Virus record (IMG/VR): IMGVR_UViG_2706794670_000010
Source of the DNA: a virus
Lineage: Duplodnaviria; Heunggongvirae; Uroviricota; Caudoviricetes
Reading direction: 5' to 3' (one strand)
Length of the DNA stretch: 9,346 bases
How positions within the stretch are numbered: the first letter of the stretch is position 1; each line of letters starts with the position of its first letter. Position numbers and translations under genes: made by a program. Under the pieces are notes generated by a model that was given only the letters and a program-made list of their open reading frames with translations, was not told the DNA's origin and did not search any database. Positions 614 through 9,111 of this stretch are shown piece by piece.

Positions 614-765
614 CAGTCAGTGTTTCTGGCTAACCAGCAACGCGCGCCAGATTCGGTTTTAAACGTTTTGCTTTTGGTATACGTCATGGCGGTAAACGTT
701 CCATCCTGGTTAGGGAACACGCCGCACACCAGAGATTCGTTGTTGCCAAGATCGATAGTATCCAT
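613..765 (-). CDS. small hypothetical protein (~50 aa; MDTIDLGNNESLVCGVFPNQDGTFTAMTYTKSKTF...)
   Basis: Internal ATG at 765 is preceded by GAGG (5-nt spacer), whereas the ORF-track start at 819 has no Shine-Dalgarno. The stop overlaps the start of the next leftward gene. Size and position recall the small genes next to the Rac repressor, but I cannot confirm identity. Confidence 0.4.
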   Translation of the reverse strand: MDTIDLGNNESLVCGVFPNQDGTFTAMTYTKSKTFKTESGARCWLARNTD

Positions 766-946
766 GCTGACCTCATTTCCCCTTAACGCCGGGGTGGCGG
801 AACAAAAAACCTGCTGCATAGTTAAAGATTGAACCCTGCCGTCATGTTCTTACGCCTCGGGCTGGCTACTTAACCCCTGACCACTGTCTGGTAACTCGAA
901 GTATTGCCCTGCATTCTGTGGGGCGGGGTGGGTTGACGCCTGAAAC

Positions 947-989
947 AATAGCATCATTATTTTTTTTTGATGTAAATAGCATCGCTATT
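947..989. promoter_or_regulatory. OL-like operator pair: AATAGCATCATTATT (947-961) and the perfect 6-3-6 palindrome AATAGCATCGCTATT (975-989)
   Basis: Read directly from the sequence. The half-site AATAG(C/T) with an ATC spacer is the same as in the palindromes between the divergent repressor and cro-like genes (2085-2125). The pair sits upstream of the leftward operon starting at 765, beyond the terminator of the repressor operon. A matching -10/-35 could not be assigned confidently. Confidence 0.4.
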
Positions 990-1004
990 GTTTTTTGTTG
1001 GGGC

Positions 1005-1029
1005 AAGAAAAAACCACCCTAAGGTGGTT
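1005..1029 (-). terminator. putative intrinsic terminator for the leftward repressor/antitoxin/toxin operon
   Basis: A 7-bp stem AACCACC (1012-1018) / GGTGGTT (1023-1029) with loop CTAA. On the minus-strand transcript the hairpin is followed by UUUUCUU (complement of 1005-1011). It lies 17 bp past the toxin stop at 1046. Confidence 0.45.
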
Positions 1030-1045
1030 CTGTCGGCGGGAATAA

Positions 1046-1336
1046 TTAACTGTTTTTGCCTGGATACTGTCTTCGAGAATGCACAATATTTACTACTTCT
1101 ATGCTTGATGCTGTTACTCGGTAAAGGATGATGTAGTTAGGATGAGTTACAATTTCACGAAGACCAAGAACTCGCTCGCTTGGAGGATACAGGTAAGGAT
1201 GCTCTGTGAGCGGCAAAACGGATGTTTCAATTCGAATTTTCATTCTGCGTGCTGCCGCGGGATTTTCTTTAGCTATGTAGGCTACGATCTGGCGCAAATC
1301 ATCACGAGCAGATGGTAGCCATAAAACGGGTAACAT
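1046..1336 (-). CDS. type II toxin-antitoxin toxin, ParE/RelE superfamily (96 aa)
   Basis: Translation MLPVLWLPSARDDLRQIVAYIAKENPAAARRMKIRIE...IILYRVTASSIEVVNIVHSRRQYP has the ParE/RelE sequence pattern (N-terminal helices, C-terminal YR/VHSRR-type beta region). Its start overlaps the upstream gene's stop as TAATG. Confidence 0.8.
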   Translation of the reverse strand: MLPVLWLPSARDDLRQIVAYIAKENPAAARRMKIRIETSVLPLTEHPYLYPPSERVLGLREIVTHPNYIILYRVTASSIEVVNIVHSRRQYPGKNS

Positions 1337-1530
1337 TATTCACCTCTGTGAGTTGCAGCAGCAATTTGGGCAATAATTTGTTCCATTTCCGCCATTACCT
1401 CATCATGCGGAATCGCCGGGCGGGGATCCGCGAGGCTTGCTGCTACTTTGGCCCGCAGCCATTCGTTGTAACTATTTTCTTGCTCAACTGTCTCAAATTC
1501 TGAAACCATTGGGGAAAGGACTGTACTCAT
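1336..1530 (-). CDS. cognate antitoxin (ParD-like / CC2985-type addiction-module antidote, 64 aa)
   Basis: Small acidic protein (...EWLRAKVAASLADPRPAIPHDEVMAEMEQII...) immediately upstream of, and overlapping, the ParE-like gene. GAGGAG lies about 9 nt upstream of the ATG at 1530. Its start is 19 bp below the repressor stop. Confidence 0.7.
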   Translation of the reverse strand: MSTVLSPMVSEFETVEQENSYNEWLRAKVAASLADPRPAIPHDEVMAEMEQIIAQIAAATHRGE

Positions 1531-1549
1531 TTTACATATCTCCTCTGAT

Positions 1550-2050
1550 TTAGGCGCGACGGCCTTTTTGTGCAGCTAACCACCGCGCAACCGTACGATC
1601 CATTGATTCTTTTTTATCTTTCATCTCCTGAAGCATGTGTTCTTGATCTTCTTTCGGAAAAGCTCTGAACGTATGGATTAAATCTCGTTCCATCGGCTCT
1701 ACGGCAAACGGTAGTTCATCCTCTGTTTGTTCTGTGTCTGCTGGTAATGCGACTATGTTATCTTGCTGTGGTTCTCGACAATACATCCTTGCAATTTGCA
1801 GCAAATCTACCATGTCTGGCCTGATTGACTCAGGGGGAACTTTCAGTAAGCCAGCAAACTTTAGAACAGCCTCAAGGTTTAGTGGGGTTTGACCATTTAG
1901 GTAGTGACTTACCGCCCCTTGTGTTGAAAACCCCATAATTTCCGCCGCACGTTCCTGAGTCAATCCCAACTGAGATTTCTTTGCCATCCAGATTTCTTTC
2001 AGTCTTCTGGCGGCGTTGAGGTCGGTGTCTGACAATGATTTTCTTTTCAT
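1550..2050 (-). CDS. CI-like prophage repressor, Xre-family HTH, no S24 peptidase domain (RacR-like architecture)
   Basis: HTH segment LGLTQERAAEIMGFSTQGAVSHYLNGQ. It is divergent from the cro-like gene with operator palindromes in between. The first ATG is at 2050 (166 aa); the ORF-track start at 2080 is a GTG without a Shine-Dalgarno. The C-terminal region lacks the Ala-Gly/Ser-Lys autocleavage signature. Confidence 0.8.
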   Translation of the reverse strand: MKRKSLSDTDLNAARRLKEIWMAKKSQLGLTQERAAEIMGFSTQGAVSHYLNGQTPLNLEAVLKFAGLLKVPPESIRPDMVDLLQIARMYCREPQQDNIVALPADTEQTEDELPFAVEPMERDLIHTFRAFPKEDQEHMLQEMKDKKESMDRTVARWLAAQKGRRA

Positions 2051-2084
2051 ACATCCAATTCTAATAAGATTGCTAATCACTTTG

Positions 2085-2125
2085 AAATAGTATCACTATT
2101 TACTTTTAAAAATAACAGTGCTATT
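2085..2125. promoter_or_regulatory. OR-like operator region: palindrome AAATAGTATCACTATTT (2085-2101) and related site AATAACAGTGCTATT (2111-2125); candidate rightward promoter -35 TTTACT (2099-2104) and -10 TATTAA (2122-2127)
   Basis: Inverted repeats read directly from the 111-bp interval between the divergent repressor and cro-like genes; centres are 25 bp apart. The promoter hexamers are weak matches with a 17-bp spacer. Confidence 0.45.
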
Positions 2126-2161
2126 AATTATGCATTGGTAACACATCACATAGGGCGGATT

Positions 2162-2425
2162 ATGAATCTTGGAGAATATTTGCATCATTTTCATATAACC
2201 CAGAGTTCATTTGCTGAGATTGTTGGCGCATCCCAAGGGATGGTCAGCCACGTTATAACGGGGCGTGCAAAACTTACAGGAGAAAAAATATTACGTTGGT
2301 GTGAAGCAACGGGATGGGTGGTGACCCCACATGAGATTGACAGTAAAACCTACCCCAACCCAACTGACGGCTTGCCTGCTGAGTTTCAGGCTAACACACA
2401 ACCATCGGCGGGGGTTGATTCATGA
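2162..2425 (+). CDS. Cro-like / YdaS-like HTH regulator (~87 aa)
   Basis: HTH segment SSFAEIVGASQGMVSHVITGRAKLTGEK. It is the first rightward gene opposite the repressor. ATG at 2162 is preferred over the in-frame TTG at 2135. Its stop overlaps the next start as ATGA. Confidence 0.7.
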   Translation: MNLGEYLHHFHITQSSFAEIVGASQGMVSHVITGRAKLTGEKILRWCEATGWVVTPHEIDSKTYPNPTDGLPAEFQANTQPSAGVDS

Positions 2426-2847
2426 AAATCAAGCATGAACACATCCGCATGGCGATGAAAGCCTGGGCGCATCCGGACGGTGAAAAAGTTCCGGCAGCTG
2501 AAATAACCAGGGTTTATTTCGAACTGGGAATGACGTTTCCGGTTCTGCATAACGACAGCAAGCACAACACGCTTTATCTCAACACCCAAAAGATTTTCCG
2601 TTGGCTGGATAAAGACACCCCTGACGCTGTTGAAAAAATTCAGGCGTTGTTACCTGCGATCGAAAGGGCAATGCCACCTCCGCTGGTGGCTCGAATGCGC
2701 AGCCACAGTTCAGCTTATTTTCGGGAACTGGTGGAGACGCATGAACGACTGGTGAGAGACGCTGATGATTTTGTCGCAGTGGCAATCGCCGGTTTCAATC
2801 AGATGAACCGTGGTGGCCCGGCAGGAAATGCTGTGGCAGTACATTGA
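2422..2847 (+). CDS. YdaT-like (CII-analogue) prophage regulator, 141 aa
   Basis: Begins MKIKHEHI..., which I recall as characteristic of the YdaT family of Rac-type prophages. It sits in the cII position and is translationally coupled to the cro-like gene. Confidence 0.65.
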   Translation: MKIKHEHIRMAMKAWAHPDGEKVPAAEITRVYFELGMTFPVLHNDSKHNTLYLNTQKIFRWLDKDTPDAVEKIQALLPAIERAMPPPLVARMRSHSSAYFRELVETHERLVRDADDFVAVAIAGFNQMNRGGPAGNAVAVH

Positions 2848-2918
2848 CTGACAATAGCCATATCGAATCGCTCCCGGCAACTCGTGAGTAAAAAGATTCG
2901 GTATCAGAAGAGGTGAGT

Positions 2919-3593
2919 ATGGCTAACGCCTGGCTCAGATTATGGCATGACATGCCAAATGACCCTAAGTGGCGAACAATTGCCAGGGTGTCAGGGCAGC
3001 CAATTGCAACAGTGATGGCAGTGTATATCCACCTCCTGGNNNNNNNNNNNNNNNNNNNNNNNNNNNNNNNNNNNNNNNNNNNNNNNNNNNNNNNNNNNNN
3101 NNNNNNNNNNNNNNNNNNNNNNNNNNNNNNNNNNNNNNNNNNNNNNNNNNNNNNNNNNNNNNNNNNNNNNNNNNNNNNNNNNNNNNNNNNNNNNNNNNNN
3201 NNNNNNNNNNNNNNNNNNNNNNNNNNNNNNNNNNNNNNNNNNNNNNNNNNNNNNNNNNNNNNNNNNNNNNNNNNNNNNNNNNNNNNNNNACAAAATGGCG
3301 ATTGTCACGGCGCGTCACGAAATGTCACGCACATGTCACGACGAGTCACGACAGATACAGATAAAGATACAGATAAAGAAGATCAAAACACTATGGTCCA
3401 TGGCGTAAAAAACGCCACGAACCAGGCAGGGGATGTTCAGACCGTCAATCCTGGTCAGCCAGCAGGCTCGACACCGGAAGCCGATTCAGCGTATGCGCTG
3501 AAAGCCGATTCGGGCGCTGTGCAGCAGGTGATGACCGCAAGGCCGGAGCAATCACTCCAACTGCAGCAGCCTGAAGCCGATTCCGCCATTCAG
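2919..3593 (+). CDS. phage replication initiator (O-like / replisome organiser), partial: interrupted by masked run 3040-3289 and running into masked run 3594-3859
   Basis: ATG at 2919 is preceded by GAGGTGAG. The N-terminus MANAWLRLWHDMPNDPKWRTIARVSGQPIATVMAVYIHLL is typical of phage replication-initiator N-domains. The frame stays open through the visible stretch 3290-3593, which holds the iterons and a low-complexity linker. The true 3' end is not visible. Confidence 0.6.
3040..3289. other. N-masked run (250 nt), sequence unknown
   Basis: Run of n characters. ORF-track proteins crossing it are X-filled and uninformative. Confidence 1.
3304..3377 (+). repeat. candidate replication-origin iterons inside the initiator gene: GTCACG x5 phased at 10-11 bp (3304, 3314, 3324, 3335, 3345), then 12-bp direct repeat GATACAGATAAA x2 (3354-3365, 3366-3377)
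   Basis: Read directly from the sequence. Helical-period phasing of a short motif followed by an A-rich stretch inside the initiator gene parallels the lambda arrangement, where ori lies within O. The upstream extent is hidden by masking. Confidence 0.55.
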
Positions 3594-3859
3594 NNNNNNN
3601 NNNNNNNNNNNNNNNNNNNNNNNNNNNNNNNNNNNNNNNNNNNNNNNNNNNNNNNNNNNNNNNNNNNNNNNNNNNNNNNNNNNNNNNNNNNNNNNNNNNN
3701 NNNNNNNNNNNNNNNNNNNNNNNNNNNNNNNNNNNNNNNNNNNNNNNNNNNNNNNNNNNNNNNNNNNNNNNNNNNNNNNNNNNNNNNNNNNNNNNNNNNN
3801 NNNNNNNNNNNNNNNNNNNNNNNNNNNNNNNNNNNNNNNNNNNNNNNNNNNNNNNNNNN
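3594..3859. other. N-masked run (266 nt), sequence unknown; hides the end of the initiator gene and/or the start of the helicase-loader gene
   Basis: Run of n characters. Confidence 1.
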
Positions 3860-3898
3860 TGTGAATCATATTTCTGAACCGGATACCGAAATTCCGCC

Positions 3899-3919
3899 NN
3901 NNNNNNNNNNNNNNNNNNN
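3899..3919. other. N-masked run (21 nt)
   Basis: Run of n characters. Confidence 1.
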
Positions 3920-3921
3920 CT

Positions 3922-4386
3922 GACGAACTGATGACCGGGTGCACGAATTTTGTGTTCAGCGGTAAAACCGGCACCGGGAAAAATCACCTTGCAGCGGCGA
4001 TGGGTAACCGGCTGATGGCGAAGGGGCGCAGCGTGATTATCGTCACCGAGTCTGATGTCATGAGCGTGTTGCATGACAGCTACGACAACGGCAAATCCGG
4101 TGAAAAATTTTTACAGGAGCTTTGCGGGGTTGATTTGCTGGTCCTGGATGAAATAGGCATTCAGCGGGAGACGAAAAACGAGCAGGTGGTATTGCACCAG
4201 ATAATTGATCGCCGGACAGCATCACTGTGCAGTGTCGGGATGTTAACAAACCTGAATCATGCCGCAATGAGCACGCTTCTTGGTGAGAGGATTATGGACC
4301 GCATGACCATGAACGGTTGTCGGTGGGTGACGTTTAACTGGGATAGCTGGCGTTCAAATGTCAGCTTTCCGGGAGTTGTGAAGTAA
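3922..4386 (+). CDS. DnaC-like helicase loader (IstB-like AAA+ ATPase), C-terminal ~155 aa visible; 5' part lies in masked sequence
   Basis: Walker A FSGKTGTGKNHLAAA and Walker B LLVLDEIG, and the visible stretch follows my recalled DnaC sequence closely. The frame is open upstream into the N-run, and ATG at 3931 would sit only 10 residues before the Walker A, so the real start is upstream. Stop at 4384-4386. Confidence 0.8.
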   Translation, partial: DELMTGCTNFVFSGKTGTGKNHLAAAMGNRLMAKGRSVIIVTESDVMSVLHDSYDNGKSGEKFLQELCGVDLLVLDEIGIQRETKNEQVVLHQIIDRRTASLCSVGMLTNLNHAAMSTLLGERIMDRMTMNGCRWVTFNWDSWRSNVSFPGVVK

Positions 4387-6199: not shown

Positions 6200-8032
6200 A
6201 TGGCCCGCATGTTTGATACATTAGGATTTTACATTATGAATGTGCAACATTTTGATTTTTTTACAGATAATGAGTTTTCTAATCTGGAAAGATATCAAAC
6301 TTGTAAAGCCATGGCCAAAGGTTATGCGGGCAATTACAAAACCGGGCAGTCAAGGTTGATGCATGCCCGCTCATACTGCTTCAGCATCGTAGCTGCATAT
6401 TGGGATACCCTTGCAAAAAAGCAAAAAAGCAGCATTAAAATGAGGGCAGTACCGCACACTGTTTACATAGAAGACATTCCATGTGATGCACGCGAGCTCG
6501 CTGAACGAACAGGTGAGCTTATTGCTCAATTTCCGGCGGAGGACGCTGGATATCTGATTGGGTCAATTTATACGGTAATGCTGCCATCCGCTTACCGTTC
6601 GGAATTGGGGGCTTACTATACCCCCCCACCTTTGGTAGCGCGTCTCTTGGACCTGGCTGAAAAGTCTGGTGTTGATTTTTCTCATGCATCGGTTATTGAT
6701 CCTGCGTGTGGTGGCGGTGCATTTTTGGCACCAGTAGCCATTCGAATGTTAAAAAAAGACAAGGGGTCTTCCCCTGAATGGATGTTGAGGAGAATCAGTC
6801 GTCGTTTAAAGGGGATAGAGATCGATCCATTTGCGGCTTGGATGAGTTTGGTATTGCTCGAATCTGTACTAATGCCACTATGTGTAAAGGTAAAACGTAG
6901 ATTGCCTGAAGATACAATTATTGTTGCTGATGCGCTTCAGCAAGATAAATTTTCTGGTTATGATCTTGTGGTAGGGAATCCGCCTTACGGACGTGTCACT
7001 CTCGATATTAAAACGAGAGAAAAATATTCTCGTTCGTTATTTGGTCATGCAAATCTATATGGATTGTTCACCGACTTAGCTGTTCGCATGGTTAAAGAGA
7101 AAACAGGAGTTATTGCATTTCTTACGCCAACTTCTTTTCTTGGTGGGCAGTATTTCACCGCGCTGCGAACCCTTTTGACCGAAAAAACTACTCCGTATGC
7201 CCTTGATTTCGTCACTGACAGGGATGGGGTCTTTGACGATGTTCTCCAGGAAACAATGTTGACAGCATTCAAGGCGGGAGAACATAAAGTTCGGGCCCAG
7301 GTATCCTCACTTGTCCCTAAGGGGTTGAACAAAGCAAAAATTGAGAAAATAGGTAATGTTGATATAGAAAAAGGTGGAGCAACGTGGCTTTTGCCACGCG
7401 TTAAAGATGATGCCTGTTTTCTTAATGTATTAAAACAGATGTCTACGCGTTTAGCTGATCTGGGATACTCAGTCTCTACAGGTCAGTTAGTCTGGAATCG
7501 ATTTAAGTCGCAGTTGCGTACGACGAAAGGAAAAAATAGCTACCCATTAGTCTGGGCGGAATCAATAACTTCAGCTGGTTTTCGTTTTAGTGCAGACAGA
7601 AAAAATCATGTTCCCTATATCGATATAACCCCACAACAGGGTTTCCTTGTGACAAAATCTGAATGTGTGCTTGTTCAGCGGACAACATCGAAGGAACAGG
7701 ACAGAAGGATTTTAGCGGCAATTTTACCTCAGGGATTTATAGATGAAACTGGTGGCGTAGTAGTTGAAAACCATATTAATATTGTATATTCAAACGGATT
7801 GTTCTCTGCGGTTCGCCCTGATGTTATTGATATGCTACTTAATTCGCATGTTGTCGATCGGGCGTTCAGGTGTATAAGCGGAAGTGTTGCTGTTTCGGCC
7901 TATGAATTGAATTCAATCCCGTTGCCTTCTCTGGAGCAGGTGATGGAGATTCAATCGTTAATTGATGCTGGCGTCCACAGACGGATTATTGAGAGAACTA
8001 TCGCTGGTTTCTATGGAGTGATGATTGCATGA
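6200..8032 (+). CDS. gamma-class N6-adenine DNA methyltransferase (Type II R-M modification subunit), 598-610 aa
   Basis: Motif order YYTPPP (motif X), then DPACGGGAFL (motif I, AdoMet binding), then VVGNPPYG (motif IV, NPPY), then a long C-terminal target-recognition region. Start is ambiguous: ATG at 6200 or 6209, or ATG at 6236 with AGGA 9 nt upstream. Stop TGA at 8030-8032 overlaps the next ATG. Confidence 0.85.
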   Translation: MARMFDTLGFYIMNVQHFDFFTDNEFSNLERYQTCKAMAKGYAGNYKTGQSRLMHARSYCFSIVAAYWDTLAKKQKSSIKMRAVPHTVYIEDIPCDARELAERTGELIAQFPAEDAGYLIGSIYTVMLPSAYRSELGAYYTPPPLVARLLDLAEKSGVDFSHASVIDPACGGGAFLAPVAIRMLKKDKGSSPEWMLRRISRRLKGIEIDPFAAWMSLVLLESVLMPLCVKVKRRLPEDTIIVADALQQDKFSGYDLVVGNPPYGRVTLDIKTREKYSRSLFGHANLYGLFTDLAVRMVKEKTGVIAFLTPTSFLGGQYFTALRTLLTEKTTPYALDFVTDRDGVFDDVLQETMLTAFKAGEHKVRAQVSSLVPKGLNKAKIEKIGNVDIEKGGATWLLPRVKDDACFLNVLKQMSTRLADLGYSVSTGQLVWNRFKSQLRTTKGKNSYPLVWAESITSAGFRFSADRKNHVPYIDITPQQGFLVTKSECVLVQRTTSKEQDRRILAAILPQGFIDETGGVVVENHINIVYSNGLFSAVRPDVIDMLLNSHVVDRAFRCISGSVAVSAYELNSIPLPSLEQVMEIQSLIDAGVHRRIIERTIAGFYGVMIA

Positions 8033-9111
8033 ATCTGCCTGTTGTTCCCCCATTGAATGTTATCCGGGAAAGATTACAATTAATTTTCCCTGAAGGGACT
8101 GAGAATCGTGGATATTTAATTCGGGAAATAGCTGCAAAAACAATTTTTGTCATGTTTTATGCTGGTGCGGTTGAGGGGCTGGGGCGATGGATAAGGCCCA
8201 GCCAGGTTGTAAGTATGGGAGATTCGCAGGCTGCTCTTACTGATGATGCGTCCAGAGAAAGCTGGGTAAAGATGACTTTCTCTAAACAAAAGATAAGGCC
8301 TGCTGATGCATGGTATGCGGAAAATACGCGTGAGCCAATACGTGATGAAACTATAAAAAATGGCCTAATACCTTGCAATGCAATTGTTGAGCGTAAAGGT
8401 ATACCCACCACATCCTCTCGTCCTCGTTACAGTTTGAATCGCTCTTTTGCAGCACTCTTTGATGCCGGGCTTGAAGGAGATTCGCTGCTGAGTGCAATAA
8501 GTTCCTGGCAAGAAAATCATTTGAACAAAGCCGCTCTTGCTAGGTTGCGTTTATTGAAATCAGGGGCAGTGATTGCTGCTGATGCCGTAGTCGTCACTTT
8601 CCCAAATGGAGAGAAGAGAACTTTAGCTCCGGGCCCGTCAAGTACAATAGCTAAGGCCGTCATCGAAGTTTTTGCTCCTAATTTTCTTAAGAATCCAACT
8701 GTGCTCTGGTTGTCTGAATCCGGGAATAAAGTTGTTGCTCAGGATGATGTATTGGCAAAAGCATTGGGGCTGAATATTGATGCCTCAAAAGCACTTCCAG
8801 ATATTATTTTGATTGATTTGGGAGAGGACCGAACGGGTTCGGACATGCTTGTAGTTTTCACTGAAGTAGTTGCGACAGATGGGCCTATAAACAGGGAACG
8901 AAAAGTTACTCTCACTCATTTGGCTATTGACGCTGGGTTCAGCGAGAAAAATCTTGCATTCCTTACGGCATTTATGGACAGAAGTGCTCTGCCTTTTAAA
9001 AAGGCAATACCAGAATTGGCGTGGGGATCTTATGCATGGTTTGCTTCTGAACCGGAGCACTTAATTGATCTTCGGGATGGTTATCCGGTAAAGATCAGCC
9101 AGAGAAAATGA
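8029..9111 (+). CDS. putative Type II restriction endonuclease partner of the methyltransferase (possibly BsuBI/PstI-like; family unverified), 360 aa
   Basis: ATGA start/stop overlap with the methyltransferase and GGAG 10 nt upstream indicate translational coupling. Same AT-richer composition as the methyltransferase. I could not locate an unambiguous PD-(D/E)xK motif by eye, so nuclease identity is inferred from context. Confidence 0.55.
   Translation: MNLPVVPPLNVIRERLQLIFPEGTENRGYLIREIAAKTIFVMFYAGAVEGLGRWIRPSQVVSMGDSQAALTDDASRESWVKMTFSKQKIRPADAWYAENTREPIRDETIKNGLIPCNAIVERKGIPTTSSRPRYSLNRSFAALFDAGLEGDSLLSAISSWQENHLNKAALARLRLLKSGAVIAADAVVVTFPNGEKRTLAPGPSSTIAKAVIEVFAPNFLKNPTVLWLSESGNKVVAQDDVLAKALGLNIDASKALPDIILIDLGEDRTGSDMLVVFTEVVATDGPINRERKVTLTHLAIDAGFSEKNLAFLTAFMDRSALPFKKAIPELAWGSYAWFASEPEHLIDLRDGYPVKISQRK

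Follow-up and report, generated by a model that had tools for sequence, protein, structure and literature searches.

Gene organization of the immunity region

The window examined here is the whole 9,346-nucleotide stretch of DNA from IMG/VR virus record IMGVR_UViG_2706794670_000010 (Caudoviricetes), and this study concerns a family of short palindromes that flanks its repressor operon. Judged by the kind and order of its genes, the window is the immunity region of a lambdoid prophage resembling CP-933P and Sp12. A gene for a CI-like repressor is followed on the minus strand by genes for a PaaA2-family antitoxin and a ParE2-family toxin, and a gene for a Cro-like protein with a helix-turn-helix (HTH) diverges from it.

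1046..1336, minus strand: ParE2-like toxin gene (Pfam ParE_toxin PF05016, E 1.8e-17; PDB 5cw7 ParE2, E 7e-37)
1336..1530, minus strand: PaaA2-like antitoxin gene (Pfam PaaA2 PF21217, E 3e-23; PDB 3zbe PaaA2, E 1.4e-23)
1550..2050, minus strand: CI-like repressor, 166 aa (HTH in residues 1-91, disordered linker, PaaR2-like two-helix C-terminus)
2162..2425, plus strand: Cro-like HTH protein in the position of YdaS, 87 aa (helix SQGMVSHV)

The three leftward genes are 19 bp apart or overlap, one terminator follows parE, and together they form a repressor-PaaA2-ParE2 operon (1046-2050, minus strand). A PaaA2-family antitoxin and a ParE2-family toxin directly downstream of the regulator in a single operon are the mark of the CP-933P type. 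At least 80% of positions 800-2900 is carried by 72/5426 complete E. coli genomes (~1%), and the repressor protein is identical to one recorded from Shigella sonnei.

Experiments on CP-933P have shown that its proteins PaaR2, YdaS and YdaT behave as counterparts of CI, Cro and CII (Jurenas et al. 2021, PMC8630535). The promoters PR, PRM and PL are accompanied by right operators OR1-3 and left operators OL1-3; PaaR2 and YdaS footprint the 97-bp intergenic OR region, and both repress PL, whose OL sites lie downstream of paaR2-paaA2-parE2 (PMC8630535).

Palindromes at the two predicted early promoters

An earlier note on this DNA had reported four palindromes, AAATAGTATCACTATTT at 2085-2101, AATAACAGTGCTATT at 2111-2125, AATAGCATCGCTATT at 975-989 and AATAGCATCATTATT at 947-961. 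All four are present at these positions. They are also placed as the note described, two between the divergent repressor (2050) and cro-like (2162) starts and two just past the hairpin and T-tail terminator (minus strand, 1029->1005) that closes the repressor operon. As a correction to that note, the interval between the two pairs contains not just the repressor gene but the PaaA2/ParE2 toxin-antitoxin pair too.

947..961, no strand: OL1, AATAGCATCATTATT, one mismatch to AATAG-N5-CTATT; promoter-proximal at PL, over the predicted PL -10
975..989, no strand: OL2, AATAGCATCGCTATT, perfect match; promoter-distal, its edge (975-976) overlapping the predicted PL -35
2063..2077, no strand: candidate weak OR3, AATAAGATTGCTAAT, two mismatches; centre at -20 from the repressor ATG
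2086..2100, no strand: OR2, AATAGTATCACTATT, perfect match; centre at -43 from the repressor ATG, abutting the PRM -35 and overlapping the PR -35
2111..2125, no strand: OR1, AATAACAGTGCTATT; centre at -68 from the repressor ATG, over the PR spacer and bases 1-4 of the PR -10

When up to one mismatch to AATARYNNNRYTATT was allowed, exactly the four reported sites were found in 9346 bp, where 0.33 matches are expected. Four sites were reached in 0/200 dinucleotide-preserving shuffles of the window. A position-weight matrix (PWM) was trained on relatives only and then scored on the window. The four sites scored 19.6-23.3 bits, with OL2 the best in the window at 23.3. The fifth-ranking site is at 2062-2078 with 7.6 bits; the top score of a shuffle averages 8.5. 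The PRM spacer and one edge of the PRM -10 lie within this weak site. The count of just two OR sites in the earlier note is therefore not supported, as a third, weak OR3 is probable at 2063-2077. The 111-bp divergent intergenic region (2051-2161) contains these three sites, and the same family recurs at a second, leftward early promoter past the repressor transcription unit, beyond the terminator. Both arrangements are those of a lambdoid switch.

Conservation of the sites in related loci

The repressor was used to retrieve 51 loci from IMG/VR. In 44 the repressor is at least 77% identical, and in 7 it has a different N-terminal domain. The motif was accepted with at most one mismatch and positions were taken relative to the repressor ATG. 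The motif lies at -43 in 44/44 loci and at -68 in 42/44, L015 and L036 having no -68 copy at this cutoff. A pair of motifs at about +1055 to +1096 is likewise found in 44/44. Only one stray match outside the expected places was found in these 44 loci.

When all 55 loci with a related repressor are considered, 225 motif matches are paired and 3 are unpaired in 381 kb of partly redundant sequence, and the leftward pair keeps its position in every one of them whatever the cargo. By comparison, E. coli DNA from other prophages (108 kb) contains 2 unpaired matches. Chance alone should give ~0.02 motif pairs per 5-Mb genome, and in the host about 4 exact single sites. Every relative has an equivalent of OL1, 24-28 bp from OL2.

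The outer bases AAATAG/CTATTT are invariant over 22 distinct OR versions. The earlier note had treated an ATC spacer as part of the site. ATC occurs in 3/4 of the window sites, but the central 5 bp vary freely in relatives. Because variation is greatest in the five bases at the centre of OR2 and the outer bases are fixed, the spacer is not part of the site. The likely consensus is A-AATAG-N5-CTATT-T, 15-17 bp long. In the 22 versions the OR2 centre (2091-2095) comprises the most variable columns of the whole repressor-cro interval, while every flanking base is fixed. The imperfect left half of OR1, AATAAC, is present in every relative.

Co-variation of the sites with the repressor DNA-binding domain

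More distant relatives have a repressor N-terminal domain that is 45-75% identical and retains the helix TQGAVSHY. Their repressor is followed by HigBA, by a HipA-like pair or by no cargo. Each of them has three sites, at -68, -43 and -19/-20. The -19/-20 site is ATTAGTAAAACTATT, with one mismatch, and its presence supports the weak OR3 of the window. All also have a pair of sites directly after the cargo, 24-26 bp apart, over a promoter of the form TTGACx-N16-18-TATTGT.

Loci whose flanks are kept but whose DNA-binding domain is another lack the motif and have a palindrome family of their own at both places. In the 7 loci with another repressor N-terminal domain, 0 matches to the motif were found. 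The heteroimmune loci L049-L053, which have the same flanks, contain ACTTTNNAAGT once at OR and twice at OL, and L048 and Sakai Sp12 contain GTTTAGT repeats. The window and Sp12 are homologous up to 935 and again from 2411 onwards; in the part between, matches are confined to the toxin-antitoxin genes and the repressor C-terminus, so the motif lies exactly in the exchanged patches.

A reverse search for viral contigs in which two copies of the motif lie 8-14 bp from each other returned at least 80 loci. Among the matches listed, 33/44 contigs with GC of at least 0.44 encode a homologue of the lambda CI N-terminal domain in the fetched stretch. Such a homologue was found in the fetched stretch of 0/36 AT-rich contigs, again among the matches listed, and these are chance matches. 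The homologue is distant (28-60% identity) in 10/33 cases, and all ten start the recognition helix with QG, mostly preceded by T or S. The earlier proposal that one operator family serves both the OR-like and the OL-like places, with one repressor for both early promoters, is thus supported by position, co-variation, the reverse search and the CP-933P experiments (PMC8630535).

The published PaaR2 N-terminus, MQKKE, was not found in the fetched loci, BLAST with L048 did not return O157:H7, and literature on paaR1/paaA1/parE1 yielded nothing relevant to the repressor type of the window.

The repressor and the Cro-like protein

The first ~90 residues of the repressor are homologous to the DNA-binding N-terminal domain of lambda CI (phmmer, PDB 1lmb, E 2.9e-9, ~39% identity), as in a lambda-type switch. 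In an AlphaFold (AF2) model with a mean pLDDT of 77, five N-terminal helices are joined by a disordered linker (92-118) to two C-terminal helices. When this model was searched with Foldseek, the top 10 PDB matches were all lambda CI N-terminal domains (1lmb/3kz3/1rio; TM 0.84-0.93). An S24 peptidase domain was not found in the repressor, for which Pfam gives HTH_3 and HTH_31 only and the model has just the two helices at the C-terminus.

In the alignment with lambda CI, the basic N-terminal arm is kept as MKRKS, Q44 is the first residue of helix 3, and the acidic residues E33 and E37 align with lambda E34 and D38 of the positive-control patch. The arm, the helix-3 glutamine and the positive-control residues have well established roles in lambda CI. 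The recognition helix TQGAVSHY, beginning T43-Q44-G45-A46-V47, is invariant across the family. It is nearly the same as the SQGMVSHV helix of the Cro-like protein. The form (S/T)QGMVSHV is common to the Cro-like proteins of all loci with the same motif, whereas the Cro-like proteins of the heteroimmune loci differ.

The last 44 residues of the repressor are 52% identical to the PaaR2 C-terminus (E 5e-15), but the N-terminal DNA-binding halves of the two proteins are unrelated. For this comparison the PaaR2 sequence was taken from Sakai Sp12 by coordinates. The repressor family is modular and occurs in three forms. One has the lambda-like HTH and the shared tail, as in the window; another, of 132 aa, has a different HTH on the same tail; and the last, of 244-255 aa, has both HTH domains in tandem before the tail. 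The tandem repressors of L057-L062 (proteins P0013-P0023) combine the lambda-like HTH with an L052-type HTH, followed by the shared C-terminal helices. A search of the tandem-HTH loci for the L052-type operator ACTTTNNAAGT gave no match, AATAG-type operators being the only ones there, and the second HTH thus lacks a local target. It is possible that this domain serves cross-immunity.

A tblastn search of 50,697 phage records gave no repressor with more than 60% identity, and lambda and other lambdoid phages at ~31% were among the best matches listed. A scan of genome contigs, one genome per species, for peptide patterns of the repressor gave no confirmed relative, the patterns being too specific.

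A more speculative and rather doubtful proposal, drawn from these sequence patterns, is that the AATAG half-site and the helix '(T/S)-Q-G-x-V' constitute an old, portable specificity module that is shuffled between C-terminal domains, with a T-run near PL acting as a dial for that promoter. The module appears to be common to CI-like and Cro-like proteins of enterobacterial prophages and of distant high-GC environmental phages. The C-terminal domains among which it is shuffled might include those of the tandem two-HTH repressors, whose second HTH might provide cross-immunity against a second phage type. The slippage-prone T-run, with 5-9 T in near-identical prophages, may be a heritable dial for PL and for the dicB-type leftward genes of relatives.

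Predicted promoters, terminator and leftward leader

2058..2086, minus strand: predicted PRM, -35 TTCAAA (2086->2081), 17-nt spacer, -10 TAGAAT (2063->2058), 9/12 consensus match
2099..2127, plus strand: predicted PR, -35 TTTACT (2099-2104), 17-nt spacer, -10 TATTAA (2122-2127), as read from the sequence
945..976, minus strand: predicted PL, -35 TTTACA (976->971), -10 TATTGT (950->945), from the sequence and the alignments of relatives
1005..1029, minus strand: putative intrinsic terminator of the repressor-PaaA2-ParE2 operon, stem AACCACC/GGTGGTT, 4-nt loop, then TTTTCTT, as read from the sequence

The PRM -10 ends 7 nt before the repressor ATG, which fits a leaderless start. Transcription would begin with the A of the repressor ATG (2050) or right beside it and produce a leaderless mRNA, as it does for paaR2 and lambda cI (PMC8630535). 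The predicted PR has the same layout as the PL of relatives (CTATTGACx-N16-18-TATTGT). The terminator hairpin is kept in all relatives, with changes in the loop only.

A consensus promoter and terminator scan of the window listed PRM; PR and PL (8/12 matches) and the operon terminator were not listed. PR was missed because of its 8/12 match; for the terminator, a stem able to reach into the T-tail may be the reason. The assignments of PR, PL and the terminator are based on reading of the sequence together with conservation. A rightward candidate (TTGACG-16-CATTAT, 933-960, plus strand), which overlaps OL1 and points into the terminator, was set aside, as it is not conserved in relatives of 80% identity.

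The predicted PL has a spacer of 20 nt in the window and 17 nt in most relatives, owing to a run of nine T at 960-968, between OL1 and OL2. Loci with a 99-100% identical repressor have 5, 6, 8 or 9 T at this place. With the length of the run, the distance between OL1 and OL2 changes from 24 to 28 bp and the spacer between the predicted PL -35 and -10 from 16 to 20 nt. This variation could represent a slippage-driven dial, inactivation of PL or an assembly error.

A leader of ~160 nt (776-935, minus strand) extends from PL to the ydfA-like gene. It is 91-93% identical to Sakai Sp12 and L052, although the neighbouring operators, repressor domain and cro are unrelated in both. An Rfam scan of the whole window gave nothing above noise, and the leader matches no Rfam family. 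The possibility that the PL leader (760-945, minus strand) is an RNA element was dropped, as its folding is no better than that of shuffles (z = +1.07).

A model for the switch

Very probably the palindromes act as operators in a bistable immunity switch of the lambda style, in a prophage of the CP-933P/Sp12 kind. Dimers of the 166-aa CI-like repressor would bind the sites, each half-site being read by the lambda-CI-type HTH, and the Cro-like protein, with its near-identical helix SQGMVSH, probably competes for the same sites. Occupancy of OR1 and OR2 would block transcription of cro, ydaT and the replication genes from PR, because these operators cover the PR -10 and -35. OR2, centred at -43 of the predicted leaderless PRM, is in the place from which lambda CI activates PRM, and the two acidic positive-control residues, E33 and E37, are kept. 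At high repressor levels the weak OR3 over PRM could mediate negative autoregulation.

On the left, OL2 and OL1 would cover the -35 and -10 of PL, which is predicted to drive the ydfA-like leftward genes from just past the terminator that ends the repressor-PaaA2-ParE2 operon. Judging from homology, higher-order oligomers probably form through the PaaR2-like C-terminal helices and could bridge OL and OR, ~1.1 kb apart. PaaR2 itself is reported to octamerise (PMC8630535).

Alternative explanations for the palindromes

Several observations weigh against this model. The binding of the repressor and the Cro-like protein to the sites is argued from comparison between loci. As the two proteins are co-inherited in most loci, the comparative data leave it ambiguous which of them, or whether both, read the sites. 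Many of the related loci are near-duplicates, so the locus counts are partly redundant and do not represent independent events. The PWM and the conservation counts were built from sites picked by the motif itself. OR3, with 7.6 bits, is not significant on its own. PR matches the consensus at only 8/12 positions, and PL, given its 20-nt spacer, may be weak or dead in the window.

An alternative view is that the Cro-like protein (2162-2425) alone reads the palindromes and that the CI-like repressor has another target. Its helix is shared by the Cro-like proteins of all same-motif loci, and these proteins are co-inherited with the motif in close relatives, as that view would have it. We nevertheless consider it improbable, since six distant contigs found by the motif alone (L064, L071, L074, L083, L138 and L141) have a homologue of the CI N-terminal domain and no detectable Cro homologue, and since the repressor helix is itself invariant in the family and near-identical to that of Cro. 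Furthermore, both proteins footprint the same region in CP-933P (PMC8630535). Autoregulation by a PaaA2-ParE2 complex, as in classical type II systems, would explain why the clusters of sites flank the operon holding the toxin-antitoxin genes. PaaA2, however, has no DNA-binding domain (PMC8630535), and the motif keeps its positions when HigBA, a HipA-like pair or no cargo at all follows the repressor. It is also absent from loci that combine near-identical PaaA2/ParE2 with another repressor. Since the motif is independent of cargo, the toxin-antitoxin complex is effectively ruled out as the reader of the sites.

It is very unlikely that the palindromes are chance products of AT-rich DNA or mere -35 and -10 parts without an operator role, even though they overlap predicted hexamers in AT-rich intergenic DNA and the double motif does arise by chance in AT-rich viral contigs (36 with GC < 0.44 and no repressor, among the matches listed). 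None of the shuffles reproduced the four sites, the outer bases, which have dyad symmetry, never change while those of the centre do, and the motif is predictive of a homologous repressor. Another palindrome family replaces it in heteroimmune loci whose flanks and promoter positions are the same. The AT-rich sequence, the overlap with promoters and the horizontal acquisition of the prophage would also suit a host nucleoid or regulatory protein (e.g. H-NS, Fis, IHF) that silences prophage promoters. Such a protein is an equally poor candidate, as the exact 5+5 dyad is conserved around a free centre, the sites keep a strict ~25 bp spacing, and other palindromes replace the motif in the same host species when only the phage repressor domain changes.

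The CII-analogue arm and downstream genes

Rightward of the Cro-like gene lies ydaT, with a candidate operator for its product.

2415..2432, no strand: YdaT operator, TTGATTCATGAAAATCAA, perfect, at the stop of the cro-like gene and the start of ydaT
2422..2847, plus strand: YdaT, CII analogue (Pfam; PDB 3c4r, E 4e-79; 77% identical to Sakai Sp12 YdaT)

The consensus of the YdaT operator is TTGATTN6AATCAA, and the operator lies where the cro-like gene ends (PMC9986795). Because of its perfect site, the CII-analogue arm, with a PRE-like promoter, appears to be intact and of the CP-933P type, despite the exchange of CI, Cro and their operators.

Downstream of ydaT are replication genes, DUF1627, DUF977 and a PstI/BsuBI-type restriction-modification pair. 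Runs of N (masked), at about 3040-3290 and 3600-3920, interrupt the replication-initiator gene (2913-3923). The type II restriction-modification pair lies in the early-right region (6200-9111) and consists of an Eco57I/N6_Mtase-family methyltransferase of 610 aa and a BsuBI/PstI-family endonuclease of 360 aa, with a 4-bp overlap.

Comparison with known switches

No published description of the immunity type or the DNA specificity of the window was found. For this lambdoid type of immunity, the analysis provides a testable operator consensus and a map of promoters. The immunity specificity is new, but the system belongs to a known kind, the CP-933P/lambda switch; the mechanism is not new, and the understanding of lysogenic switches is unchanged.

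The window resembles lambda in having dyad operators of ~17 bp spaced 23-25 bp apart, OR1 and OR2 over PR, a second operator set at PL, a predicted leaderless cI-type mRNA, and an OR2 centred at about -43 of PRM. In lambda, OR2 is centred at -42 of PRM. It differs from lambda in several respects. The repressor ends in two short helices instead of an S24 peptidase domain cleavable with RecA, the half-site is AATAG rather than TATCAC, toxin-antitoxin cargo replaces rexAB, two OL sites are seen, and YdaT takes the place of CII. Unlike lambda Cro, the Cro-like protein is an all-helical HTH protein carrying the recognition helix of the repressor.

In this last respect the window is like 434 and P22, where repressor and Cro also have closely similar recognition helices and contest one operator family. 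In those phages the outer operator bases are conserved and contacted and the central bases are variable. Beyond the HTH fold, however, there is no sequence relationship to 434 or P22, and the operators differ in sequence and length. The Rac (RacR/YdaS/YdaT) and Qin (DicA/DicC, dicB operon) prophages of E. coli K-12 share with the window and its relatives the ydfA/DUF1391 and dicB-type leftward genes and a rightward ydaT. Their operators differ, and no similarity was detected in the searches run, which did not compare RacR or DicA.

The closest resemblance is to CP-933P and Sp12. All have a repressor-PaaA2-ParE2 operon followed by a divergent cro-like gene, ydaT and replication genes; PL and its operators just downstream of the toxin-antitoxin operon; a YdaT operator of the TTGATTN6AATCAA type at the end of the cro-like gene; a repressor with no peptidase domain; and a leaderless repressor mRNA, which is predicted for the window. 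Unlike in CP-933P, the repressor's DNA-binding domain is unrelated to that of PaaR2 and is a true homologue of the lambda CI N-terminal domain, and the Cro-like protein has no detectable similarity to YdaS. The operators are of the form AATAG-N5-CTATT, not 18-bp inverted repeats of the GTTTAGTAA type, and only two OL sites are seen where CP-933P has OL1-3. The repressor of the window is thus a natural hybrid, with a lambda-CI DNA-binding domain on a PaaR2-type oligomerisation tail, and is suited to studying how specificity and cooperativity modules recombine. The comparison also shows the experimentally dissected CP-933P switch to be one of several interchangeable immunity cassettes on the same scaffold.

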